The notes under the pieces: generated by a model | Seen by the model: only the letters and a program-made list of their open reading frames with translations | Told to the model about the DNA's origin: nothing | Database searches by the model: none | Virus record (IMG/VR): IMGVR_UViG_3300044736_000016 | Location: 45,769-109,768 of that record | Direction: 5' to 3' (one strand) | DNA from: a virus | DNA length: 64,000 nucleotides | Position numbers and translations under genes: made by a program | In this document: one piece after another, positions 10,922 to 51,693 of the stretch | Numbering within the stretch: position 1 is the stretch's first letter | Layout: each line of letters opens with the position of its first letter

Positions 10922-11247
10922 CTTTGGGACTCCGTCTTGGTGCGCTTACGGCGCGGCTTGCGGGGTGGTGGCAGATAATCTAACGCGACGTCCAGCGCCA
11001 CCTTCGCTGCGATGAGGTCATCCCGCGCGAGTGCTGTCCGTGCGTCGATGGCGGCTCGTGCAGTATCAACCAGCCAATCGCATGCTTCCTTGTCCACCTC
11101 ATACTCGGAGGAACCGGCCACGAACTCCTCTGCCACTGCCAGCCGCTCCTCTGCCGTGGTGGCAGAGTCAAAGGTACGCGGGGTGTATTCGACGTCAAGC
11201 GCTCCGGCCTCGTCACCCATATCCGAACTCGGTGCGGGATCGATCAT
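10918..11247 (-). CDS. Hypothetical protein
   Basis: Likely start MIDPAPS, overlapping the stop of 11244..11453. Confidence 0.45.
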   Translation of the reverse strand: MIDPAPSSDMGDEAGALDVEYTPRTFDSATTAEERLAVAEEFVAGSSEYEVDKEACDWLVDTARAAIDARTALARDDLIAAKVALDVALDYLPPPRKPRRKRTKTESQR

Positions 11248-11717
11248 CTGTATCCCCCTATCCTCAGCCAGCGGGCGAGGGTGAGTAGCCACGGACAGCG
11301 GCGGGCGGGGTTCGCGCACAAGACGAGTTCCTCGAAGGGCTCGTCTGGCCCGAGTTCGCGTCGCCGGGATGGGTCCCACGGTTTGCCGTCGTCTGTGCGC
11401 ACCTCGCCAAGCATGTTGCCTTCAAGGTCATACAAGTACTCGGGCTCATCCATGGCAGTGCGACCTCAGCGGAGAGGTATCGCCACAGATCAGCCACGTT
11501 GCTGCGCCAGCGTAGATGATGAATCCACCGATCACCTGCAAGAGCGGTGAGGAGGAGACCGTCCAGACAACGAGCGTCGACAGGATCGGTGCCAGCACTA
11601 CCAACAGGAAGCGGAGCCTCTCGGTGTGGTGTTCTTGCGAGTCGATGAGTAGATCCACGGCTGCGATCCTCTCCTCGATGGTGAAGTCGCGTATTGGTTC
11701 GGGATGCTCTGTCTCGC

Positions 11718-26074: not shown

Positions 26075-26419
26075 GTGAGTCGACTCAAGCTGAACAACGT
26101 TGGCGGGACCACGGGCGCGGCGCTCGGTTCTTCGTCGTCGGGCACGTCGCAGGCGATCACTGGACTCTTCGCGGTCGCCCCTGCCTTCGCCACCATCGTC
26201 GCACCTGACTACTACGTGGTCATCTTCGAGCCGAACACGGCGAACGAGGAGATCGCGTATCTGACCGTCTACACGTCGGGCGCGCTCGACGGAACCATCA
26301 CCCGTGGGCAAGAGGGGACGGGGGCACCCGCACACACATCGGGGGTCTCATGGACACACGGACCGACCGCGCAGGACTTCGCTCCGACGTACAAGCCCGC
26401 GGCGTTTTTCCTTTCGTGA
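26075..26419 (+). CDS. Small virion fibre-associated protein
   Basis: EI...T......TITRGQEGT.A..H..G motif typical of fibre N-domains. Confidence 0.65.
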   Translation: MSRLKLNNVGGTTGAALGSSSSGTSQAITGLFAVAPAFATIVAPDYYVVIFEPNTANEEIAYLTVYTSGALDGTITRGQEGTGAPAHTSGVSWTHGPTAQDFAPTYKPAAFFLS

Positions 26420-27138
26420 TGGCCCTATCCCGCCTGCTTCTACTGCTCGGGCTGGTCACGCTGATCGGTGGTTGTGGTTCAGGTACGTTCGCCGCAGGGA
26501 TCGCGCCTGCGTACACGGGGCACATCGTCGCTCTCGGCGACAGCCTGACGTACGGCCACGGTAACGGCGCCAACGACCAGTGGTTCGGTCCACCACAGCC
26601 GCACTCCTACCCGTGGGACATGGAAGCCGACCTTGGTATGCCCGTGGTCAACGCCGGGATCACCGGGACAACGGCGTACTCAGTCCTGCATCAGGAGACG
26701 CTGCCCTGCTGCCCACGGCCGGCAGAATATCAGCTACCCGCCCTGCTCGCTCAGCATCCGCGCCTGATCGTGGTCGGCTTCGGCACGAACGAGGCGAACT
26801 ACCGCCACCCGATCGCGCAGACGGTCGCTGACTTCCAACTCCTGCTCTACCAGATCGCGAACGCAGGCGTGCCCATCGTTCTGTTCGGCGTCCATGTCGA
26901 CTGCACCGTCCAGCCGTGCACCCCGCCCGGTCCGGGAGAGACGGCGCAGGTGTATACGACGGCGTGGGACCAGGCGCTGACCTCGCTCGCGGCGCAGTAT
27001 CACGCTGGGTTGGTGCTCGACATCCAGCATGGGTTCACCTCGGCCGACATGACGGACTGGATTCACTGCAACGCGCAGGGCTATCAGAAGATGGCGAACC
27101 AGATCGAACCGGCCGTGCGGTCGAAGTTGGGTATCTAG
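26419..27138 (+). CDS. SGNH/GDSL hydrolase, predicted lipoprotein
   Basis: GDSL, NAGITG, GTNE, DWIH blocks; LIGGC lipobox-like. Confidence 0.85.
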   Translation: MALSRLLLLLGLVTLIGGCGSGTFAAGIAPAYTGHIVALGDSLTYGHGNGANDQWFGPPQPHSYPWDMEADLGMPVVNAGITGTTAYSVLHQETLPCCPRPAEYQLPALLAQHPRLIVVGFGTNEANYRHPIAQTVADFQLLLYQIANAGVPIVLFGVHVDCTVQPCTPPGPGETAQVYTTAWDQALTSLAAQYHAGLVLDIQHGFTSADMTDWIHCNAQGYQKMANQIEPAVRSKLGI

Positions 27139-27329: not shown

Positions 27330-30300
27330 GTGATCACTCTCGCCGCTACCAACACAATTCAGGGTAGCGCGGGAACCACGACGGCGGTCACCTACACAAT
27401 CACCGGCATGACGCTGTCGAGCGCGCAGGCAGAGACGTACGCAGTCCTATCTCAGGGCCAGCTCGCCACATCCGCGGCAGCGATCTACACCGTGCCCGCG
27501 AGCACGTCGGCGCTCGTCAAGGAGATCCTGCTCGCCAACGTCACGGCCGCAGCCGTATCGGTCAAGCTCTACATCAACGGCACCACGGCGGCGAACCAGA
27601 TCACCTCGCTCAACATCCCTGCCAACGGCGAGGCGAAGTTCGATCACACGGGCTGGGCGGTGTACGACGGCAACGGTAGCCTGCAAGTCACGCCTGTCTA
27701 CATCACTGCGGCGGCGGGGTCGGTCCCGGAGGCGTCGGTCGCCAACCTCGGCATGGACCTGACCGTGCTGACCGCGGCCATCGCAGACAACGGCGTGGAT
27801 TCGGGCTGCGCCGTGACGTGGGTGTCAGGCCTGAACGTTGCCATCGCCACAGGCATCGTGCGCATCGGCGGTGGACGGTACAACATCGCAGCCGTCGCCT
27901 CGCAGGCGCTGAACACCGCCGACCCGAACTACGCGCGCTGGGACATGATCACCGCGAACACCTCGTCCGCCGTGGTCTACACAGCAGGCACCGCTGCGGC
28001 GTATCCGGTGGTCCCGGCCATCCCCGCGAACTCCGTCGTGCTGGCGATCATCCCCGTCTACGCTGGCAACAACCCGGCGCTGTCGGGCGCAGCCATCGTG
28101 GACAAGCGCATCATTCTGCCGACCACGAACCTGAACCTGCCGCCAGTGTTCGACCCGAGCGGTGGTTTGAAGACGTGGCGTGCCGCGGTGGCGAACAAGG
28201 AAAACAAGCCCGCGGACATCCTGTTCATCGGCGACAGCATCCACGAGGGCTACTACAGCAGCGACGATGCGCACCGGTACGCCTCGCTCGTCAGACGCAG
28301 GCTACAGAACTACTACAACCCGACGCACATTCCCGGAGGCGAGGGCTTCATACCCGGCACGCATGTGCAGGGTTCCGGCGCAGGCAACGGGTACATCGCG
28401 CTCGCGCAGCGGTGGACGGTCGTCGGACCAAGCCTACCTCCGACCGATCTGGGTTACGGGTTGGGGCGGCGGTCTGTTCCGCTCACCGCCGCAACGCACA
28501 CTGCGACCATCGGCGGACTGCTCGCGGACCGGTTCTGGATCTACTACACGGCCACCACGACGTCAGGCTGGATCGGCATCGCTATCGACGGCAAGCTGAC
28601 CACGGTGGCAACGCAGGGCGTTCTGTCCGGCACCGGCACGGGCACGTTCACGACGACGCTCGCGACAGGATGGCCGGGTGGCACGTTCACACTCACGGTG
28701 GACGACGAGGACATGACCGTCACGGCGAACGGCGCCACCATCACGATCACGGCACGAGGAGCGAACGCCACCACCGCAGTCACGCATGCCGTGGGCGCGA
28801 CTGCGCAGTGGGCTCCTGCGGGCGTGAAGCGCGCCAACACCCTCGGCGCCGCGATCAAGGGCGGTCGCATGTGGGATTCAGGCGCGCTGACCCGCGGTAT
28901 CCACTCAGTGACCGTCGTGCCGATCAACCGTGCCGGTGGCGGGTCGACCTACAACGTCAACCTCGACGGCGTCATGGTGTTCGACGGCGACGGTGGGCCG
29001 GGACCGGGCACGTTCACTGACGGCGTGCTCGTCGGCACGACCACCACAGGCGTCCAGACGCTCCCCATATCGACCATCAACGTCACATCCACGACGAACT
29101 TCCCTGCGTCCGGCCAGGTGAACATCGTGACCTCGTCGGGCGCGCAGACCGTCACCTACGCGGGCGTCACCGCCAACACGCTGACCGGATGCTCGAACGG
29201 CGTCGGCAACACCTCGGCTGGCGGGGCCGTCACATCCCAGACATTCCAGAGCGCCACGGCAGCCTTCACCGCGGCCGACGTCGGGCAGTACATCTACGCG
29301 GTCGGCATCCCCGTGCACACGACGATCACCGCCGTTGTGAGCGCGACGCAGATCACGCTGTTGCAGCCAGGGACTGCCACCAGCTCGGGAATCACCTTCG
29401 AGATCAACGGCAGATCCGCAGGAGTGCGCATGTGGGATGGCGCGCACTCGACCATGACATCTGCGGGCATGGCTGGTCCGGCGGGGGCGATCAACGGTTG
29501 GTGGGCTGACGCGCTCGACACCGTGGACCCTGACCTTGTGGTGATCGAGTTCGGCATCGTGGACTTGATTTTGTCCGTGACGGGTGCGACCTACTACGCG
29601 AACCTCACGTCGATGGTCAGCCTCATCAAGTCGAAGTGCCCCGGCAACCCGTCCATCTGCTTCTTCGTCGCGTGGCAGCCCGGAGATTACACGGCAGCGC
29701 AGTGGGGCGTGTTTACCAACGCGATGTACCTCGTCGCCCAGCAGCAGGGCTGCGCGGTGTTCGACTTCTCGCTCAGGGTCTCTGCGGCAGCGGCATCAGG
29801 TGCCGGTGCGGTGATGTTCACCGACACCATCCACCCGAACGATGCTGGTGCGCAGGACATTGCGCTCGAGTTCACCAAGTACCTCGTCGGGCACGAACTC
29901 GTGCAGCCGATCAAGAGTCCGTGGTTCGGGGACGGTTCGGACGGCGCGGTGGTGTTCGACGGCACGACGACCATCCTCGGCATGGCCCCAGCGTCGAGCG
30001 TCTACACCCTGACGCGCGATCTGTTCCTGACCAACATGACCGTGAACAACGGCGTGACGATCAAGACGGCATCGTTCCGCATCTACGGTACCGGCACCTT
30101 GATGACGCCGATACAGGCTGTCGCGTCCACGGGGATCATCGACTGTTCTGGCGGAAACGCAGCAGGACAGACTGCTGGGGCGGCAACCGCGAACCAGTCT
30201 CTGTCGGGTAGCGTCGGCGGCGGGGCTGGAGGCGCGATCGGTGGGGCGGGTGTGGCGGGTGGCACTCTCACCGCAGCGGGGACAGGACCGCTCATGGGAG

Positions 30301-30776
30301 GTGTCGGCGGGATCGGTGGTGCCTCGACGGGAGCCGCTGGTGCAGCGGGTGCAAACACCAACGCAGCGGCGCAGAACCTCCTCAACGCCCGCACGGTCCA
30401 CACGGCGACGACAGGCTGCGCCATGGGGTCGTTCGGCGCCTTCCAGAAGGTGCTGTACGTCCAGCCCGGTCAGGGCGGCGGCGGCGGCGGCGGTGGCGCG
30501 GCGGTCGGTGGTGGTGGTGGCGCTGGAGGCGGCATCGTCCTGCTCGCCTTCGCGACCATCAACTTCCTCGGACCCATCCTCGCGAACGGCGGCAACGGCG
30601 GCAACAGCACGGGTGGGGCGGGCGGCGGCGGCGGCGGCGGCGGGGCGATCTACCTCACCTGCGCCAACCTAGGACTGCTTGGCCCGGTTGCAGCAGCAGG
30701 CGGGTTCCCCGGCACGGGCACGGCCGGCGCACCGGCCTCGGGTGGCGCAGGCAGCGTCATCATCACCCGCGTGTAG
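27330..30776 (+). CDS. Fibre/spike protein with split SGNH esterase and Gly-rich C-terminus
   Basis: FIGDSI ... IEFG..D ... DTIHPN; poly-Gly repeats; FGDGSDG motif. Confidence 0.8.
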   Translation: MITLAATNTIQGSAGTTTAVTYTITGMTLSSAQAETYAVLSQGQLATSAAAIYTVPASTSALVKEILLANVTAAAVSVKLYINGTTAANQITSLNIPANGEAKFDHTGWAVYDGNGSLQVTPVYITAAAGSVPEASVANLGMDLTVLTAAIADNGVDSGCAVTWVSGLNVAIATGIVRIGGGRYNIAAVASQALNTADPNYARWDMITANTSSAVVYTAGTAAAYPVVPAIPANSVVLAIIPVYAGNNPALSGAAIVDKRIILPTTNLNLPPVFDPSGGLKTWRAAVANKENKPADILFIGDSIHEGYYSSDDAHRYASLVRRRLQNYYNPTHIPGGEGFIPGTHVQGSGAGNGYIALAQRWTVVGPSLPPTDLGYGLGRRSVPLTAATHTATIGGLLADRFWIYYTATTTSGWIGIAIDGKLTTVATQGVLSGTGTGTFTTTLATGWPGGTFTLTVDDEDMTVTANGATITITARGANATTAVTHAVGATAQWAPAGVKRANTLGAAIKGGRMWDSGALTRGIHSVTVVPINRAGGGSTYNVNLDGVMVFDGDGGPGPGTFTDGVLVGTTTTGVQTLPISTINVTSTTNFPASGQVNIVTSSGAQTVTYAGVTANTLTGCSNGVGNTSAGGAVTSQTFQSATAAFTAADVGQYIYAVGIPVHTTITAVVSATQITLLQPGTATSSGITFEINGRSAGVRMWDGAHSTMTSAGMAGPAGAINGWWADALDTVDPDLVVIEFGIVDLILSVTGATYYANLTSMVSLIKSKCPGNPSICFFVAWQPGDYTAAQWGVFTNAMYLVAQQQGCAVFDFSLRVSAAAASGAGAVMFTDTIHPNDAGAQDIALEFTKYLVGHELVQPIKSPWFGDGSDGAVVFDGTTTILGMAPASSVYTLTRDLFLTNMTVNNGVTIKTASFRIYGTGTLMTPIQAVASTGIIDCSGGNAAGQTAGAATANQSLSGSVGGGAGGAIGGAGVAGGTLTAAGTGPLMGGVGGIGGASTGAAGAAGANTNAAAQNLLNARTVHTATTGCAMGSFGAFQKVLYVQPGQGGGGGGGGAAVGGGGGAGGGIVLLAFATINFLGPILANGGNGGNSTGGAGGGGGGGGAIYLTCANLGLLGPVAAAGGFPGTGTAGAPASGGAGSVIITRV

Positions 30777-44312: not shown

Positions 44313-44974
44313 CGCCCAAGACCTCGCGCGATCTGACCACCGGGTTGCGGAAACTCGCCACCGCCTCCGTGCCCACCCAGAACCTAGAGCGGCATTGGGG
44401 GGTGATCCAAGGCGTGAGCGTCGACGGGACCGCGAGCCTGACCATCGGCGGCAGTTCGCAGACCGTCACGGGGGTGCAGTCGCTCGCCTCCTACTTTCCG
44501 GTGGCGGGCGACACCGTGCTGCTGGACGTCGTCGGGTCGGACGTCGTCGTTGTTGGGACGCTGGGGGCGTCGAGGGGGCCGCTGGGTGTGCTGCCGGGCG
44601 GTTACGCCGAGGTGCTGGTCAGCCAAGGCCCCATCACCACCGAAGTTGCGATTGCCGGCCTATTCGTGACCGTGCCCGTTTTTTCTAGCCGACGCATCCT
44701 GGTGACCCAGCAGACCTTCCCCGGCGCGGGCTCCGTGGCGAATCAGGTCATCACGACGAACATCAAAGAAGGCGTGACCTTCCTGATGCAGGCGAACACC
44801 ACGCTGTCCTTCTCCGGAGGCAACCAGACGAACCACTCGGCGGTGATCCTCAGACCTCCGGCCGGTATTCACACGTACTTCCTCTCCATGTCCACCGGTT
44901 CGGGGAGTTTCACCAACGCCGCCTCAGCCACGTTCAGGTCGTGGATCATGGCTGAGGATATCGGGCCAGCCTGA
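44309..44974 (+). CDS. Minor tail protein
   Basis: L.SY.P..GD.V...G...VVG OB-like N-domain. Confidence 0.65.
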   Translation: MTPKTSRDLTTGLRKLATASVPTQNLERHWGVIQGVSVDGTASLTIGGSSQTVTGVQSLASYFPVAGDTVLLDVVGSDVVVVGTLGASRGPLGVLPGGYAEVLVSQGPITTEVAIAGLFVTVPVFSSRRILVTQQTFPGAGSVANQVITTNIKEGVTFLMQANTTLSFSGGNQTNHSAVILRPPAGIHTYFLSMSTGSGSFTNAASATFRSWIMAEDIGPA

Positions 44975-44978
44975 TCCG

Positions 44979-45509
44979 TCAGCGTGCCATACCAAGATCG
45001 ACGATGCGCCAACTACCCTGCAACGTACATGTCTGCATCTGAGCGACCACGCCCGCATCGTGGGAGGGAGGAGTGTTGATCGGCTCGTCGTGGATCGCGG
45101 TGACCGTCCACGGATGTCGCATGCCTGTCGCGTCCGTGTAGGTGACCACATCGCCGACGCCCAGCAGCATCACGGGGGTAAACACGCCGAGGTTGTGGCC
45201 GACGAAGTAGGTCTGATCCGTGACGCACGTGTCGATCGCAGCCGCGGTGTCGGTCAGTTCAGTCTTTCCCGAGCAGTCGCGGTAGAGACCCACCGTGGTG
45301 TCGAGCCCGAACGGTCCGCTCAGGTGGCTACGGATGGAGACGGTCACAGGAGCGGCGGCGGCGGCCTTCGGCGAGGCGAGGAGCGCACCGCCCGCGGCCA
45401 GCATGGCCACGCCCGCAAAGGCAACGGCCAGCGTCTTAGCGCAGCGGTGACGGCGCGCTGGCGGACCACTCCACAGAGGGGCGGGGTGGATCGGCGCCTG
45501 GGTCTCCAT
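44979..45509 (-). CDS. Sortase-family protein (membrane anchored)
   Basis: N-terminal TM; YFVGHN, L.VGD.V, MQTC, downstream Arg = His/Cys/Arg triad. Confidence 0.7.
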   Translation of the reverse strand: METQAPIHPAPLWSGPPARRHRCAKTLAVAFAGVAMLAAGGALLASPKAAAAAPVTVSIRSHLSGPFGLDTTVGLYRDCSGKTELTDTAAAIDTCVTDQTYFVGHNLGVFTPVMLLGVGDVVTYTDATGMRHPWTVTAIHDEPINTPPSHDAGVVAQMQTCTLQGSWRIVDLGMAR

Positions 45510-45645
45510 GCGTCCATGGTGCGCCCGATCGGCACTCAGGCTCAGGACGGGGGTGGGTCGGGGCAGTTCCGTCACGGGCGCGTCACGCCCAGTATCCATT
45601 GGCGACACGGGGGGGCATAGGCTAGGCTGGGCTAGCCTCGGCTCC

Positions 45646-46140
45646 ATGGCTGATGGTGGCGGCATGGTCGCGGCTCACACGGCGAAGCAGTCGCACGCCT
45701 ATGTCATTCACTTCCCTCCGCATCCAGCGAGGACCGACGACCCGCACTACAAGGACTTCGACCACTACCACCGGACGACCCGTGGCGCGGCGCGTTGCTA
45801 CACGGGTGAGCGGGTCGGTTTTCAAGACTGCCGCGACGCTCAAGGCAACCCCTGCGCCATCGACGCTGCTGGTCAGCAGTCTGGCCTAGAGCTGCATCAC
45901 GCCCACGTCGAGTTCGCGCTCCAGCAGGGCATCAGCTTGGCGGCGCTCGAGCACGACTACCCCGGCATCAGCAACCCGGACGAGGTGGGGGCGTGGGTGG
46001 AGACAGCGGCTAACCTACGTTGGATCTGTGTATTCCATCATCGCACCAATGCTGGCGGCGCGCATTCCGTATCACATTCGGATTGGGAAGGCAGTCTGTA
46101 CGTTCGCGGGTTGACCGGAGACGTAGCGCCCAAGCCATGA
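45646..46140 (+). CDS. HNH-like His-rich protein
   Basis: LELHH...NL..IC..HH. Confidence 0.5.
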   Translation: MADGGGMVAAHTAKQSHAYVIHFPPHPARTDDPHYKDFDHYHRTTRGAARCYTGERVGFQDCRDAQGNPCAIDAAGQQSGLELHHAHVEFALQQGISLAALEHDYPGISNPDEVGAWVETAANLRWICVFHHRTNAGGAHSVSHSDWEGSLYVRGLTGDVAPKP

Positions 46141-46187
46141 GCGCCAAGATCGTCGCAGGCAGCGATGGTGGGCAGAGAGGGATCGGG

Positions 46188-46454
46188 ATGCCGCTCACGG
46201 ATGACGAAGGCAGGGAGTTGCTCGCGACCGTACGTACCCTGAGCGCTCGGCTCGATCAGTCCTTCGCCGACTTCAAGATGGAGGAGATCCCCAAGCGGCA
46301 TAAGGCCAACCTTCCCTCCGTCCTCGACTGGTGGGATGGGCGTGCCGACCGAGGTGAGAAGTCGCGGTATCTCCTACCGCTCCTTGTGACGGCCATCTGC
46401 CCCGTCATCGGCGGTGTCATCGTGGCCATCATCCTCAAGGCGCTCCACCTGTGA
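46188..46454 (+). CDS. Small coiled-coil plus C-terminal TM protein (holin-like A1)
   Basis: LPSVLDWW, C-terminal TM. Confidence 0.5.
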   Translation: MPLTDDEGRELLATVRTLSARLDQSFADFKMEEIPKRHKANLPSVLDWWDGRADRGEKSRYLLPLLVTAICPVIGGVIVAIILKALHL

Positions 46455-46855
46455 TGAACAAGTCGCCACTGCGGGGTATGCCGTTCCTGCTCAAGGTCTA
46501 TTACCACAAGATAGAACTGCTCTCGCTTTTGTTCACCATTCTGCTCGTCGTCGTCTTTTACATCTTGGCTCAGGAGGTGGTCGAGACGAGGCGGCAGGCT
46601 GGGGTCATCGCCGCCCAAGGTGTGCAGCAGAGGAAGGTGATGGAAGATGAGATCAGGTTCAACCGGTTCCTCATCGACAGAGAGACGGCGCGGACGGGGT
46701 CTGGCGGGCGGCAGGGACTCATCGACCAAGCCAACCTAGACAGGGCAGAGCTACGGCGGTTAGAGGCCGCGCTACGGGCCGCTGGGGTACGGCTGCCGCC
46801 CTCTGACGTGCTCGAGGGGCATCCTGCCAACCCGCCCCAACATGCACCGCCATGA
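46451..46855 (+). CDS. N-terminal TM, coiled-coil protein (lysis accessory B1)
   Basis: TM, coiled coil, Pro-rich tail. Confidence 0.5.
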   Translation: MMNKSPLRGMPFLLKVYYHKIELLSLLFTILLVVVFYILAQEVVETRRQAGVIAAQGVQQRKVMEDEIRFNRFLIDRETARTGSGGRQGLIDQANLDRAELRRLEAALRAAGVRLPPSDVLEGHPANPPQHAPP

Positions 46856-48066
46856 GTGCCCAAATCGTCGCTGACACTGACGGGCGCGTGATCTCGTGGG
46901 ACGCTGAGGCAGCGCGGCTCTTGGGGTATCCGGCGGACGAGGTTGTCGGGCGTCTGCTCGGAGAGACGATCGTCCCCCCACAGCATCGTGACCAGTACGA
47001 CCGTGGGCTGGATGACTTCCGAAAGACGGGCGCAGTGCGTTCGCTCGGGATGCGCTTGCAGGTTGATGCACTGCGCAAGGACGGCACCGTGATCCCGATC
47101 GACTTGCGGCTGACGAAACTCTCGGCCGATCCGCCAACTCTGCTCGTGCTCATCGACCCGCGAGCACCAGCCGACCAACCCGACCCATACACCGGCACCG
47201 AGCACCGTGACTACGCAGCAGACACCGAGGCAGCCCGTGCTGGTCGTGCTGAGGCGCTGGCTGGTGGTGTGACAGAGGTTGCGGCAGAGGTCGAGGCAGA
47301 GCGGGTGCAGCGCGCCAAGGGGCTCGCCGCTCAGTCTGAGCACAACGTTGCGGTGGCCGCCGCAGACGTGGAAGCGGAGCGACTGAGGATTGCTGCAAGT
47401 CTGGCCACGCAGTCCGCCCTGGGCGCTGCCTCGGCTGCTTCGATCTTGGAGGAGGAGCGCATCAAACGTGCAGTCGCCCTGGCTCTCGAATCCATCCGCG
47501 AGACGTCTGCCACGGCCGCCGGAGTTGAGGCAGAGCGGATCCACCGCGCCGAGACCTTGGCGGATCGTTCGGCACGGGGCGTGTCATCGGCAGCAGCAGA
47601 CGTCGAGGAGGGCCGGGTAGAACGAGCCACGAAGCTCGCCGTCGAGGTGGAGCGTGCGAAGCTGAAAGCGGAGGGCGTGGCTGTGGCGGTGAACGGACTT
47701 ACCACAGAGGTAACCGAACTACGAGGCGCCGCCGTGCGGATGGAAACGGCAGTACGGGAAATGAGCAGCCATCTTTCCGAGGTACTGAAGGCGACCGAAG
47801 CGCTGCACACCGGGTACGGCGTTGACGAGAGCACCATGACGGACCGCTCGCGATTTCCATCCCTGCTGACATGGTGGGGGCGGATGACGACGGAGATCGT
47901 CCCAGGTACAGGCAAGACGCGGCTGGCGATATTCGATGAGGTGATCGCCCAGCGCGCGAGCCGTATGCACGTCTCTACAAGCGGGCTCAAGGTGTTCGCC
48001 ATCCTCACCCCATTCCTGTGCATCATCATCGGCGCAATTCTCACGTTTCTGCTCACTCGAAAATGA
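46852..48066 (+). CDS. PAS-domain protein with 26-aa repeats and C-terminal TM (A2)
   Basis: D.DGRV..W...A..LLGY..DEVVG...IVP...LRKDG..IP.D = PAS/PAC. Confidence 0.8.
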   Translation: MSAQIVADTDGRVISWDAEAARLLGYPADEVVGRLLGETIVPPQHRDQYDRGLDDFRKTGAVRSLGMRLQVDALRKDGTVIPIDLRLTKLSADPPTLLVLIDPRAPADQPDPYTGTEHRDYAADTEAARAGRAEALAGGVTEVAAEVEAERVQRAKGLAAQSEHNVAVAAADVEAERLRIAASLATQSALGAASAASILEEERIKRAVALALESIRETSATAAGVEAERIHRAETLADRSARGVSSAAADVEEGRVERATKLAVEVERAKLKAEGVAVAVNGLTTEVTELRGAAVRMETAVREMSSHLSEVLKATEALHTGYGVDESTMTDRSRFPSLLTWWGRMTTEIVPGTGKTRLAIFDEVIAQRASRMHVSTSGLKVFAILTPFLCIIIGAILTFLLTRK

Positions 48067-48686
48067 CGACCTTACGCAGGATCTGGCAGTGGGCGTGGGG
48101 CTTGCGCCTCTATATCCTCGCTGCCTTGTTTGTAGCCCTAGTCATCGCCATGGCCGCATCGCTCGTGGGCTACGGGCAGCGACAGAACAGGCAGGATGCG
48201 CAGAGAGACCGAGACGAGGCTGCCGCGCGGGCGCAGATCGTCCGAATCACCGCAGACGAGGCGACGATCCAGACATTGGTCGACCAGAATCGAAGGTCAA
48301 TCAACAACAACTCGGCCATGCTCGGGACCAGCAGGCTGGACATCAGCGATCTGCGCGCCATCATCGCGCAGACCAAGGACGAGGTCGTGCGCCAGCTCGA
48401 TGGGCTCCCCAGCGTCGGGTTGCCTACGCCGACTGACACCGTGGCTGCCAAGCTCATCGCGCTGCTGGACCGTCTGGACAAGCTCGACGCGATCGTGGCA
48501 CGCCTCGATGCCCGCGTGGCCGCACTGGAGGCAGCCGCGTCCTCGGCTAGTGGCGAGCCCCGTCCCACGCCGACGGGAACGCCAGCACGCTCTCCACGGG
48601 CAGAGCCCGGACCACGCCCTGCGCCAGCGCCAGAGGAGCACTGCATCGTCCAGCATGTCGCTTTCTGTGCCAGCGCGAAGCCGTGA
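48063..48686 (+). CDS. N-terminal TM, coiled-coil, Pro-rich protein (lysis accessory B2)
   Basis: TM plus heptads plus Pro-rich tail ending C......C. Confidence 0.55.
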   Translation: MTTLRRIWQWAWGLRLYILAALFVALVIAMAASLVGYGQRQNRQDAQRDRDEAAARAQIVRITADEATIQTLVDQNRRSINNNSAMLGTSRLDISDLRAIIAQTKDEVVRQLDGLPSVGLPTPTDTVAAKLIALLDRLDKLDAIVARLDARVAALEAAASSASGEPRPTPTGTPARSPRAEPGPRPAPAPEEHCIVQHVAFCASAKP

Positions 48687-48868
48687 ACATGAGAGAGCCC
48701 CGGTGGTTCGGCTATGCCGCTCTCGCGGGTGCTGCGGTTGTCCCGTAGCAGACGATCCTACCGAGGCTCCTTCGCCTCTCAGTATAGCGCACAGGTTGGG
48801 CATCTACGTGCCACGCCTAGCCTGCGTGGGTGGTGGCGTCAGTAGAGCGCTACGAGCGGAGGGCGGGC

Positions 48869-49111
48869 ATGGGGACACTGAATCCGAAGGTGAAGGGACA
48901 GACGATCGCGCACCTTGCCGTATGGACGGCGGCCACTCTTGGGATGGCATGGCTGCAGGGCGGCAAGGCGGCGATGCTCACGGCTGGGACTGGGCTTGTC
49001 GCTACGCTCATGGGGTTCGGTACGGGCTACCAGATCTCCTCGCCTGAGCCTGCAGCGAGTACGATCGCACTGCCGAGCGGCGGGTCGATCACCGAGGTTC
49101 CGCCGGGTTGA
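48869..49111 (+). CDS. Putative holin
   Basis: NPKV, two short TMs, GY motif; upstream of peptidase. Confidence 0.55.
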   Translation: MGTLNPKVKGQTIAHLAVWTAATLGMAWLQGGKAAMLTAGTGLVATLMGFGTGYQISSPEPAASTIALPSGGSITEVPPG

Positions 49112-49119
49112 TGAGTACG

Positions 49120-49782
49120 CTACGAGCGTCGACAGTCAGCGCACCACCTGAGCTTGCTGGTGCCCTGACCGTTGGGCTTGAACTTGGCGCCGCAGCCCTC
49201 GCAGAAATAGTCCGGATGCCGCCGACCGGAGGCATTGCGCTCGCGCAGGGCGCTGAGCCGTCCGTCCTCCTCCATATGGCAGCGTCGGCACCGCCAGACG
49301 ACATTCGATGGAGAGTTGTCGAGGGTGTTTCCGTTCTTGTGGTGCCGATCGATGGCGCGTGCCCCGCAAGCACACACTGGCTCGACGTCTCGGTACAGCC
49401 TTCGTGCTCGCTGGTGTCCAGCGGGCATGGGATGCACGGGTATTCGCTTGCGGGGACGCGGACCAGCCAGATAACAGGCGCGGCACTTGACAGCAGAACG
49501 GCTAGTGAGAGGAGAGCCGCAGGCGCAGAAATGGTCTGCTGGCCTCCAGTAGGGTCTTTCGGGGGCCACGGGGCGGGCAGCCACGGCACAGGCGCGGCAC
49601 CGATTAGCCTGCCGGGTGATCGGTTTCCCACAAGCACACCGACGTGTCGGGTGCTGGGCGGATCGTTCGGCCAGCCGCTGCCTACGCAACTCGTGGTAGC
49701 AGGCACTGCATCGTTCGGTTGTCAAGCGTCGGGTACGCAACGGATCACCACAGTCGATGCAGTGCCTGACTGTTCTAGCCAT
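49120..49782 (-). CDS. HNH endonuclease with multiple Zn-finger repeats
   Basis: HHKNGN.LDN...N...C..CH; repeated CxCG...CxxC. Confidence 0.85.
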   Translation of the reverse strand: MARTVRHCIDCGDPLRTRRLTTERCSACYHELRRQRLAERSAQHPTRRCACGKPITRQANRCRACAVAARPVAPERPYWRPADHFCACGSPLTSRSAVKCRACYLAGPRPRKRIPVHPMPAGHQRARRLYRDVEPVCACGARAIDRHHKNGNTLDNSPSNVVWRCRRCHMEEDGRLSALRERNASGRRHPDYFCEGCGAKFKPNGQGTSKLRWCADCRRS

Positions 49783-49799
49783 GAAGGGATGGTACCACT

Positions 49800-50579
49800 T
49801 TGAGTGTGCTGCAACCCGCACTACTAACATGGCTGCAATTTTCAGAGCCTGGACCGGATCATTCCGAAAGTTGCGGGCAAAATGCAACCGCCTCGGCCCT
49901 CATCGGCGGTGGCCATCTTCCACCTAACGGCAACGCTCCTATTACAGTGGATCGGTGGATGCAAGCGCAAGGCTATCCTGGCCTGTCGACCCAAGGCACG
50001 CAGACGAACTGGCTACAGGACGTCTTGGAACACTTTGGCGGCACTCGTGGCCACGACCACGGTAACAACTTCGACGCCATTGTTCGCACGCTGGGCGCAG
50101 GTCGCTATGCCATCGTTCTGGTTGGCTCCGATCACGTAGGGCATCCAGTACCCAACAACCAAGCCGTCACGGGGCACTGGGTCGCAGTCTATGGATACGA
50201 CGGCACCAACTACCACATCGCCAACAGCGGCTCGGGTCGAGTCGAGGCGTACACCACAGGATATTTCCGGAGCGCGTACCGCGGCATCACGCTCGACACC
50301 GGGATCACGCCGACAGCGAACGAGGAGAGTGGACCGATGACGCAGGATGAGGCGCGCGCCGTCACATACGCCCTGGTAGGGCTGGGGCTCGGTGAGGGCG
50401 CCGACACTCCGGGCATCGGTGCCCAGATCGAGGCGTATGCCACGCCTATGACAGCGAACGTTGAGGGCGCTATCTCGACGCTGATCTCGGACATGCGCAA
50501 GAACCCCGGCTACGTGTGGAACGTCGTGAAGGCGCTGCAGAGTGATGTCGCCAGCCTGAAACAACACGCCGGCATCTAG
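49800..50579 (+). CDS. Putative endolysin, C39-like cysteine peptidase
   Basis: Q...SCG, GHWVAVYGYD, N; lysis position. Confidence 0.65.
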   Translation: MSVLQPALLTWLQFSEPGPDHSESCGQNATASALIGGGHLPPNGNAPITVDRWMQAQGYPGLSTQGTQTNWLQDVLEHFGGTRGHDHGNNFDAIVRTLGAGRYAIVLVGSDHVGHPVPNNQAVTGHWVAVYGYDGTNYHIANSGSGRVEAYTTGYFRSAYRGITLDTGITPTANEESGPMTQDEARAVTYALVGLGLGEGADTPGIGAQIEAYATPMTANVEGAISTLISDMRKNPGYVWNVVKALQSDVASLKQHAGI

Positions 50580-50590
50580 GGAGAGAACGC

Positions 50591-50983
50591 ATGGGTCTCG
50601 GAGACATCTTCCACAAGGTCGTAGGCGCGGCGACGGGTGCCGTCAGGGGCGTCGCGGAGGTCGTGCCCGTCGCGGTGAGCACGGTCGTGGCGAACGTGGG
50701 TAGCGGCATCGCCAACCCCCCCACGGTGCCGAATATCGGGGCAGTGCTCACGGGCGCGGCCACCACCACCCACGCCAGCGGCCAGGGCACCGTCCTCGAG
50801 CACTACGTGGCCAAGTACGGCGCGGCAGGGCTGGCCATGGTGACCGCGCTAATCGTGCCGCACCTCCCGCTGCCCGCAGGGATTAAGACTGCCGGGTCCG
50901 CTGCCCTCGTCGGCTTCGCGCTCAAGATGCTGCACGACACCGCCGCCCACATGGAAGCGCCCTACACGGGAACTGCGGCGTGA
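50591..50983 (+). CDS. Membrane-associated hypothetical protein
   Basis: RBS, hydrophobic C-terminal half. Confidence 0.55.
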   Translation: MGLGDIFHKVVGAATGAVRGVAEVVPVAVSTVVANVGSGIANPPTVPNIGAVLTGAATTTHASGQGTVLEHYVAKYGAAGLAMVTALIVPHLPLPAGIKTAGSAALVGFALKMLHDTAAHMEAPYTGTAA

Positions 50984-51150
50984 TCGACGTCATCCTGCAG
51001 ACGACCGCCCATGCCTCGTCCAACGCCGTGACCGTGCTCGCGGAGGGCCTGGCTGCTGGGATAACCGGCGCGGGAGCCATCGCTGCGCTCATCATGCACG
51101 GGCTACACGTCACGACGCCTGCGATCGGCGCACTCCTGCGCCTGCTCTAA
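50980..51150 (+). CDS. Small hydrophobic protein
   Basis: Read manually; GTGA-coupled. Confidence 0.45.
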   Translation: MIDVILQTTAHASSNAVTVLAEGLAAGITGAGAIAALIMHGLHVTTPAIGALLRLL

Positions 51151-51210: not shown

Positions 51211-51693
51211 CTAGGCTGGAACGTCGGCACGCGGTAGCCGATACACAGCACGGCTGACACGCTGCACGTCGCCTTCCCTTGTCATCAGAGAGAGCAGGGT
51301 GGATACAGTCTCACTAGACAGTCCAGTGCGCGCGGTGATCTGACGAGAGGTGGCTTGGCCGCGGTACTCCGCGACGACCCTCAATATGCGAGCACGCTGA
51401 GTCGGCTTCCTCGCGGACCCCAACGCTGGCCCAACCAATACCTCCGCCGTCCGCTGTCTCCGAGGCTCCCATTGGATGAACCCGAGTTCACGCATCTCTG
51501 TGAGCAGATCAAAGATGGTGGCGACCGAACTGAACCCAACGTAGGCGCCAATCTCGGTCAGTATCGGACCTTTCCCGAACGTCTTGCGGTACTGCTCAAC
51601 CCACCCTGCAACGCGGCGCATGCGTAACTCGGCGGCGGTGATGACGTAGACGGGCGGGTCCTCTACGGGCTCCGGCTGCAACTGCGCGCTCAT
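51211..51693 (-). CDS. LexA-like wHTH plus second HTH, no peptidase domain
   Basis: G.GP..TEI...VGFSS.AT....L..M...GFI......R. Confidence 0.7.
   Translation of the reverse strand: MSAQLQPEPVEDPPVYVITAAELRMRRVAGWVEQYRKTFGKGPILTEIGAYVGFSSVATIFDLLTEMRELGFIQWEPRRQRTAEVLVGPALGSARKPTQRARILRVVAEYRGQATSRQITARTGLSSETVSTLLSLMTREGDVQRVSRAVYRLPRADVPA

Follow-up and report, generated by a model that had tools for sequence, protein, structure and literature searches.

The moment at which phages lyse their hosts responds to the energisation of the membrane and, in T-even phages, to superinfection, and I know of no described phage lysis protein that carries a dedicated cytoplasmic sensor domain. Among the accessory factors of lysis, LysZ and LysY have been defined only in 2025-26. 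LysZ is a post-holin lysis factor of actinophages (corynephages and mycobacteriophages) that is required to get past the lipomannan/lipoarabinomannan (LM/LAM) lipoglycan barrier once the wall has been degraded, and it is defined by an N-terminal transmembrane (TM) helix, a long body of helical structure, a linker that is flexible and rich in proline, and a helix at the C-terminus (McKitterick, Lyerly & Bernhardt, PNAS 2026, PMC13123898). Here, four chained genes (A1, B1, A2 and B2) on a 64,000-nucleotide stretch of phage DNA (the window, bases 45769-109768 of the IMG/VR record IMGVR_UViG_3300044736_000016; all positions are in window numbering) are compared with this and other described systems. 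I tentatively favour the reading that they form two LysY/LysZ-style lysis-accessory pairs, in each of which the upstream partner would be a tail-anchored cytoplasmic protein, one of the two with a PAS input.

Architecture of the two gene pairs

A1, B1, A2 and B2 all lie on the plus strand and are chained by 4-base start/stop overlaps, with ATGA junctions between the upstream gene and a relic in front of A1, between B1 and A2, and between A2 and B2, and a GTGA junction between A1 and B1 (Table 1). The open reading frames (ORFs) and their overlaps thus confirmed the translationally coupled two-gene units proposed in a preliminary description of the window. A single segment of strong hydrophobicity is present in every one of the proteins, at the C-terminal end of the A proteins and near the N-terminus of the B proteins; this placement was likewise as first described, as were the proline-rich tails of B1 and B2. 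The Cys of a Cys-xx-IG signature that had been read in the TM segments of both A proteins is not conserved in homologues: in two A1 relatives the position holds W, and among the A2 relatives it holds G, T, V or L.

B1 and B2 resemble LysZ in a TM helix near the N-terminus, a predicted long helical body and a proline-rich, probably flexible segment, and each A gene overlaps its B gene by 4 bases, as do lysY (gp74) and lysZ (gp75) of phage Corndog, with A in the position of lysY. The module also lies where a LysZ gene would be looked for, between the tail genes (to 44974) and a tentative lysin at 49800. In an AlphaFold2 (AF2) model of B2, the membrane helix continues as a stalk (residues 3-87) and is followed by helices at 94-113 and 127-164, with a proline-containing linker (114-126) between these two, and then by the disordered proline-rich tail; in B1, a helical body is followed by the proline-rich tail and a terminal helix is absent. 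An alignment of 13 homologue clusters of the B2 family showed a well-conserved ectodomain in which C194 and C202 are invariant. The N-terminal flank of the B membrane helix carries three K/R and no acidic residue, and the C-terminal flank is approximately neutral; because of these flank charges and the extracytoplasmic look of the proline-rich tail and the Cys pair, an N-in/C-out topology is favoured for B1 and B2. Two further features set the locus apart from LysZ and LysY, namely the extra proline-rich tail of B2 with its conserved terminal Cys pair, and the presence of the A/B module twice, with one partner carrying a PAS domain.

The mycobacteriophage regulators LysF1b, LysA2b and Ms6 Gp5, which have one transmembrane domain (TMD), resemble B1 and B2 in their single N-terminal TMD and extended helical remainder, and they too are coupled through ATGA to the gene of a membrane protein lying upstream; efficient lysis depends on them. 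However, the topology predicted for these regulators is N-out/C-in, the cytoplasmic tail being highly charged, whereas B1 and B2 are predicted to be N-in/C-out with a proline-rich tail.

A local likeness between gp75 and B2 was also seen: in Corndog gp75 (Corndog 11080-11520) the membrane helix is immediately followed by NRNNNSAD, and an invariant NR-x-x-INNNSA stands ~38 residues beyond the membrane helix of B2. The likeness is probably coincidental, because hhalign leaves the two motifs unaligned.

PAS domain, stalk and anchor of A2

The N-terminal PAS domain that had been assigned to A2 proved genuine, with matches above the curated cut-offs to both PF00989 (residues 5-90, 47.3 bits where the cut-off is 22.6, E 2.3e-12) and TIGR00229 (39.7 bits against 22.9, E 4.5e-10). 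Among proteins of solved structure, the haem-PAS domains of FixL and DosP stand closest to it. A profile of the A2 family ranked the FixL haem-PAS 1d06 first among solved structures (5.2e-14), and its 14 best PDB matches comprised FixL entries, a multi-sensor kinase, YddU and DosP; residues 3-91 matched the FixL/DosP PAS structures 1d06, 1dp6 and 1v9y with E-values of 5.2e-14 to 1.7e-6, and local NCBIfam matches again gave FixL (4.5e-7) and DosP (6.1e-5). The AF2 model agrees with this assignment, predicting for residues 1-104 an alpha/beta PAS fold with a five-stranded antiparallel sheet (strands at 3-8, 12-16, 69-74, 80-91 and 96-103) and helices between the strands, at a predicted local distance difference test score (pLDDT) of 70-88 over residues 1-100. 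The PAS domain is the best-conserved part of A2: in comparisons with the most distant relatives it is 62-73% identical, versus 30-40% elsewhere, and its closest relatives outside the family are bacterial FixL-type kinases at 37-41% identity.

Unlike FixL and DosP, A2 has no kinase or phosphodiesterase output, and its PAS domain is tethered to a membrane helix. Pfam and NCBIfam searches found no kinase, cyclase or further domain in A2, as the preliminary description had stated for kinase and cyclase outputs, and an Atlas search with the C-terminal part gave a best score of 0.82, which is at chance level.

In FixL 1d06, the His of '...YRHEHDGY...' on the F-helix is what I take to be the proximal haem ligand. 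In the HMMER alignment to 1d06, A2 has Tyr49 and not His in this column. Over ten members of the A2 family, the residue-49 column holds Y in six, L in one (P0007) and H in three (P0010-P0012); the His-bearing members are the most divergent relatives of A2, and the clade of the window carries Tyr or Leu there. The family may therefore include haem-binding and haem-free members, and haem binding by the A2 of this phage cannot be assumed, since Tyr49 occupies the proximal His column. The sensing of redox state or of a ligand, as originally suggested for this domain, cannot be taken for granted either: the PAS domain is of the FixL/DosP haem-PAS lineage, but with Tyr at this position.

Beyond the PAS domain, the AF2 model of A2 shows an unbroken helix (116-322), short helices (327-372) and the membrane helix (376-403). 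The tandem 26-residue helical repeats, earlier put at about five, are five in number and spaced by exactly 26 residues, starting at residues 147, 173, 199, 225 and 251; they were invisible to a Tandem Repeats Finder (TRF) scan of the DNA, having diverged at the DNA level. Because relatives of A2 differ by the loss of 19 to ~115 stalk residues, the stalk appears to behave as a spacer of variable length and not as a register-locked signalling helix.

The claim that no example of a PAS domain with a membrane anchor in a phage lysis region had been described withstood searches of the literature and of phage databases: literature searches returned neither a phage PAS protein tied to lysis nor a PAS domain with a membrane anchor in a phage lysis region. 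Phage PAS proteins in BFVD (from uncultured Caudovirales, and a histidine kinase of Agrobacterium phage Atu_ph07) have the PAS fold in common with A2 (Foldseek E 1e-9 to 1e-3) but differ in being soluble stand-alone proteins or kinases, without stalk, WW motif or tail anchor, and none is reported beside lysis genes.

Origin of A1 and distribution of the families

A C-terminal signature common to A1 and A2 was noticed at the outset, and the likeness of the two exceeds what chance would give. BLASTP aligned them at E 0.003; hhalign of the two families gave E 2.3e-5 and a probability of 76% over 26 columns around (L/F)PS(V/L)L(D/T)WW; a colinear global alignment had z = 3.6; and the A1 and A2 family hidden Markov models (HMMs) were reciprocal best non-self matches among 1635 six-frame ORFs of the genome. 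These comparisons make a duplication of A well supported.

The direction of change can be read from the 5' ends. For the first 38 nt of A2, the best non-self match lies at 46134 (28/38, against 24 for the next best, over both strands of the whole 110-kb genome), where a relic encodes MSAKIVAGSDG, compared with MSAQIVADTDG at the start of A2, and has the same ATGA junction to its upstream gene. The relic before A1 encodes the first PAS strand only, and therefore A1 descends from a PAS-bearing ancestor. As judged from these sequences, A1 arose from an A2-type gene by a deletion that removed the PAS domain and the stalk, rather than the other way round.

The A1 frame is open from the ATG at 46137, which gives a longer form of 105 aa. 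The A1 ORF at 46188 was thus correctly placed in the preliminary description, which overlooked the additional in-frame ATG; the latter may serve as a second, longer start. A Shine-Dalgarno-like GAGGG site stands at a typical spacing of 6 nt ahead of the ATG at 46188, and all eight A1 homologue clusters (87-90 aa) begin no more than three codons from this position, so the 88-aa form is probably the main product.

A duplication of B is weakly supported. B1 and B2 were aligned by BLASTP at E 0.14 and by hhalign with a probability of 18% (E 1.3e-3). The B1-family HMM had B2 as its top non-self match among the genome ORFs (E 0.38, colinear over ~107 positions), but in the reverse test with the B2-family HMM, B1 came only 13th. 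P0037, a B1 relative of 173 aa, has a proline-rich tail that ends in two Cys, as in B2. The original claim that the two-gene module as a whole was duplicated is therefore strong for its A half and weak for its B half, where the architectures of B1 and B2 match.

The (L/F)PS motif followed by a TM helix was also considered as a sortase substrate. This was rejected, as LPSVL and FPSLL have no T-G, there is no signal peptide, and the PAS bulk is of a cytoplasmic type; moreover, the neighbouring antisense ORF at 44979-45665 (minus strand) had no sortase match at E 0.1 or better in Pfam, PHROG or NCBIfam.

Besides those of the window, 11 homologue clusters were found for A2, 13 for B2 and 8 for A1, all of them metagenomic, and for B1 just two further clusters, at 50% identity, in a set of 1.84 billion representatives. 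Contigs of equal size (2696, 3541, 5000, 7837, 8919, 75033 and 116225 nt) indicated that A1, A2 and B2 occur together, and those of 2.7 kb and 3.5 kb have room for little else. Family scans of IMG/VR with A2, B2 and A1 returned no relatives, nor were any found in 185,579 GTDB species genomes, and a metagenome scan with the full A2 alignment returned only generic bacterial PAS proteins, such as a multi-PAS GGDEF protein. Contigs from four other soil runs span the A1/B1/A2, B1/A2 and A2/B2 junctions. By my own count, third codon positions hold 18 of the 23 natural differences among those listed, and in B1 the figure is 10 of 13 among those listed. Homologue clusters, co-occurrence, bridged junctions, third-position differences and the conservation of the PAS domain together indicate that the genes of the module are real and constrained.

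The probable lysis region and possible roles of the module

The source record has 109,768 bp, direct terminal repeats and a rating of 100% complete; the GC content of the phage DNA is ~65%, and it is contained in soil metagenomes of several studies, with no RNA run listed among the sequencing runs. Upstream of A1 lie the genes of a major head protein (phrog_1005, 8.4e-73), of large tail proteins and of a minor tail protein (phrog_1887, 2.5e-49). Because this minor tail protein resembles actinophage tail proteins (30-34% identity to those of Rhodococcus, Streptomyces, Brevibacterium and Actinoplanes phages), the host is probably an actinobacterium.

Table 1. Coordinates of the A/B module and of the probable lysis genes downstream of it (window positions).
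Feature	Position	Strand	Basis
A2-type 5' relic, in frame with A1	46137..46187	+	A2 5' end has its best non-self match here
A1, 88 aa, tail-anchored	46188..46454	+	ORF, hydrophobicity, homologue starts
A1 LPSVLDWW motif	46311-46334	+	sequence
A1 C-terminal membrane helix	46368-46451	+	hydrophobicity
B1, 134 aa, GTG start overlapping A1 stop	46451..46855	+	ORF
B1 N-terminal membrane helix	46511-46570	+	hydrophobicity
B1 proline-rich tail	46787-46852	+	sequence
A2, 404 aa	46852..48066	+	ORF
A2 PAS domain	46852-47163	+	Pfam, PDB relatives, AF2
A2 five 26-aa helical repeats	47290-47679	+	sequence
A2 FPSLLTWWG motif	47854-47880	+	family alignment
A2 C-terminal membrane helix	47977-48060	+	hydrophobicity, AF2
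B2, 207 aa	48063..48686	+	ORF
B2 N-terminal membrane helix	48102-48176	+	hydrophobicity
B2 proline-rich tail	48555-48632	+	sequence
B2 C-terminal E-x-C-x7-C motif, conserved	48636-48683	+	family alignment
Papain-like C39-type peptidase, 259 aa, probable endolysin	49800..50579	+	weak Pfam, Atlas clusters
Two small proteins of 130 and 56 aa, Gly/Ala-rich and weakly hydrophobic	50591..51150	+	sequence

The gene of a C39-type peptidase begins 1.1 kb downstream of B2. Its product matched BtrH_N (9.8e-4) and Peptidase_C39_2 (7.4e-3) below the Pfam cut-offs, and its nearest Atlas clusters are all Peptidase_C39_2, several of them mostly viral, with scores up to 0.87; the whole genome has no match to seven canonical lysin families (Amidase_2, GH25, M23, NlpC/P60, CHAP, SLT and M15_4). 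The peptidase is a probable endolysin, and a lysis cassette at this site is likewise probable. Of the earlier placement of the module between tail and lysis genes, the position thus stands, and the 'lysis cassette' follows from a lysin call made on weak C39 matches. The two small proteins encoded after the peptidase have no family match in Pfam, PHROG or NCBIfam and are possible holin-type or LysY-type membrane proteins.

Several neighbouring genes deserve a brief record. HNH-type nuclease-like ORFs, read by eye, flank the module at 45661-46140 (...ELHHAHVEF...LRWICVFHH...) and at 49120-49887 on the minus strand (...DRHHKNGNTLDNSPSNVVWRCRRCH..., with several CxxC pairs); neither had a significant Pfam match. 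Directly after the last small membrane gene, a minus-strand ORF at 51211-51693 encodes a 160-aa protein with two winged-helix DNA-binding regions, matching LexA_DNA_bind (1.6e-6, residues 25-82) and an IclR/MarR-type helix-turn-helix (HTH) (1.5e-7, residues 102-145); it may be a repressor that marks where the late operon ends. SGNH/GDSL esterase domains occur in a 262-aa protein at 26350-27138 (2.2e-20) and within a 1148-aa tail-like protein at 27330-30776 (1e-16). A recognisable LysB is absent from the phage, and these esterases could target envelope lipids or glycans.

One contig from another soil run has 3 differences in 2446 nt over 47440-49885 and leaves the lysin gene unaligned (joints 49885>50277 and 50311>50590); the alignment picks up again from 50590, now with 28 differences. 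A mosaic boundary seems to lie where the probable endolysin gene begins, and the break in identity at 49885 across the lysin gene suggests that the lysin has been exchanged independently of the A/B module. In another contig, of depth 2, position 44706 is connected to 49657 through 7 letters that have no match; if the joint is real, a relative would lack both HNH-like genes and both A/B pairs together with the antisense gene, and its support is too weak for use.

Under the tentatively favoured reading of two LysY/LysZ-style pairs, each A protein would pair with its B protein in the membrane, and B would work on the outside of the membrane, on a lipoglycan or wall layer, completing lysis. The cytoplasmic A partner would set the assembly or timing of B, the PAS domain would supply a regulatory input to one pair, and the PAS-less pair would run unregulated or modulate the other. 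The sequences themselves show the gene structure, the domains, how A was duplicated, the conservation and the position of the module. Topology, pairing of A with B, a role in lysis and a signal at the PAS domain are what I infer from these genes, the role in lysis from their position and architecture. A more specific version, in which the FixL-lineage PAS protein, anchored by its tail, gates a LysZ-like ectodomain effector in response to an intracellular cue, with the PAS-deleted pair ungated or antagonistic, is unlikely as it stands.

Several observations count against this reading. The A proteins are tail-anchored and cytoplasmic, whereas LysY has four TM helices, and B1 is without the C-terminal helix of LysZ. 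The definition of LysZ is itself loose, so that many bitopic proteins would satisfy it. When the B families were compared with the validated Corndog gp75 by hhalign, the probabilities were 1.2% for B2 and 0.3% for B1, which is no similarity, and nothing similar to the module proteins was found in 50,697 cultured-phage records, where tblastn with B2 also gave no match. As LysZ alleles are recognised by structure and position, the missing similarity to gp75 lowers the case for a relative of LysZ, not that for a protein which works like LysZ. The endolysin assignment is weak, given C39 matches below the Pfam cut-offs, and the minus-strand HNH-like ORF and a small ORF intervene between B2 and the peptidase gene. 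Finally, the variation in stalk length by 19 to ~115 residues argues against rigid helical transmission of a signal from the PAS domain.

The alternative that the four genes form a non-lytic accessory membrane complex in a variable island, serving to exclude superinfecting phages, to remodel the envelope or to interfere with host signalling (through the PAS domains of A2 and of a host kinase), is somewhat improbable and is retained because the block sits among mobile-looking genes, namely the two HNH-like ORFs and the antisense gene at 44979-45665. The resemblance of the PAS domain to those of bacterial FixL-type kinases and the restriction of the families to one small soil-phage clade would agree with it, as would the depth-2 contig that may bypass the whole block, although this contig is weakly supported. 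Yet the orientation of the genes matches that of the late genes for structure and lysis, start/stop overlaps chain their translation together, exclusion genes usually stand alone near a repressor or integrase, and PADLOC gave no defence match; a defence system was rejected, the only matches being non-significant coiled-coil ones to LmuB. A holin/antiholin system, in which A and/or B would form a lethal membrane lesion and the PAS and PAS-less paralogues, or the 105- and 88-aa forms of A1, would act as inhibitor and effector, is distinctly unlikely, because what speaks for it is positional and analogical only (XhlA/gp24.1 and LysF1a/b). The proteins in question are small, single-pass and adjoin a probable lysin, A1 has two in-frame starts, and an ORF with two weak hydrophobic segments (48830-49111) follows B2. 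Tail-anchored co-holins are known in XhlA of PBSX and gp24.1 of SPP1, which act only with a 2-TM holin (PMC6316719), and mycobacteriophage 1-TMD regulators work with 2-TMD partners (PMC13056207; bioRxiv 10.64898/2026.08.27.747656). A1 resembles XhlA/gp24.1 (PF10779) in its small size, helical cytoplasmic part, single C-terminal membrane helix and location near a lysin; it differs in lacking an HMM match, in the phylum of the host, and in that the partner of A is a bitopic ectodomain protein and not a 2-TM holin. None of the four proteins had a holin or XhlA match in Pfam, PHROG or NCBIfam (for the A1 family not even at E 10), similarity to the XhlA cluster in the Atlas was at chance level (0.77), and the B ectodomain is large and conserved, unlike the charged cytoplasmic tail of the N-out/C-in LysF1b.

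It is very improbable that B1 and B2 are spanins, that is, Rz-like inner-membrane subunits bridging to an outer mycomembrane. The N-terminal TM helix, the two-segment helical ectodomain and the C-terminal Cys of B2 would suit such a role, but the PHROG 'Rz-like spanin' match (E 0.087) is not significant, the plus strand of 46100-49200 holds no embedded or adjacent lipobox ORF, and the AF2 model of B2 had no significant Foldseek match against viral models.

If the more specific version, in which the PAS protein gates a LysZ-like effector, is true, the A2/B2 pair would represent a new, sensor-controlled class of lysis regulator. A natural LysZ-like variant with a PAS-bearing partner would offer a way to study the control of such factors, and the presence of A2/B2 beside the PAS-less A1/B1 in one genome would amount to a built-in comparison 'with and without sensor'. 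Should the module not be lytic, it would still put a PAS domain to unusual use, anchored by a membrane helix and without enzymatic output.

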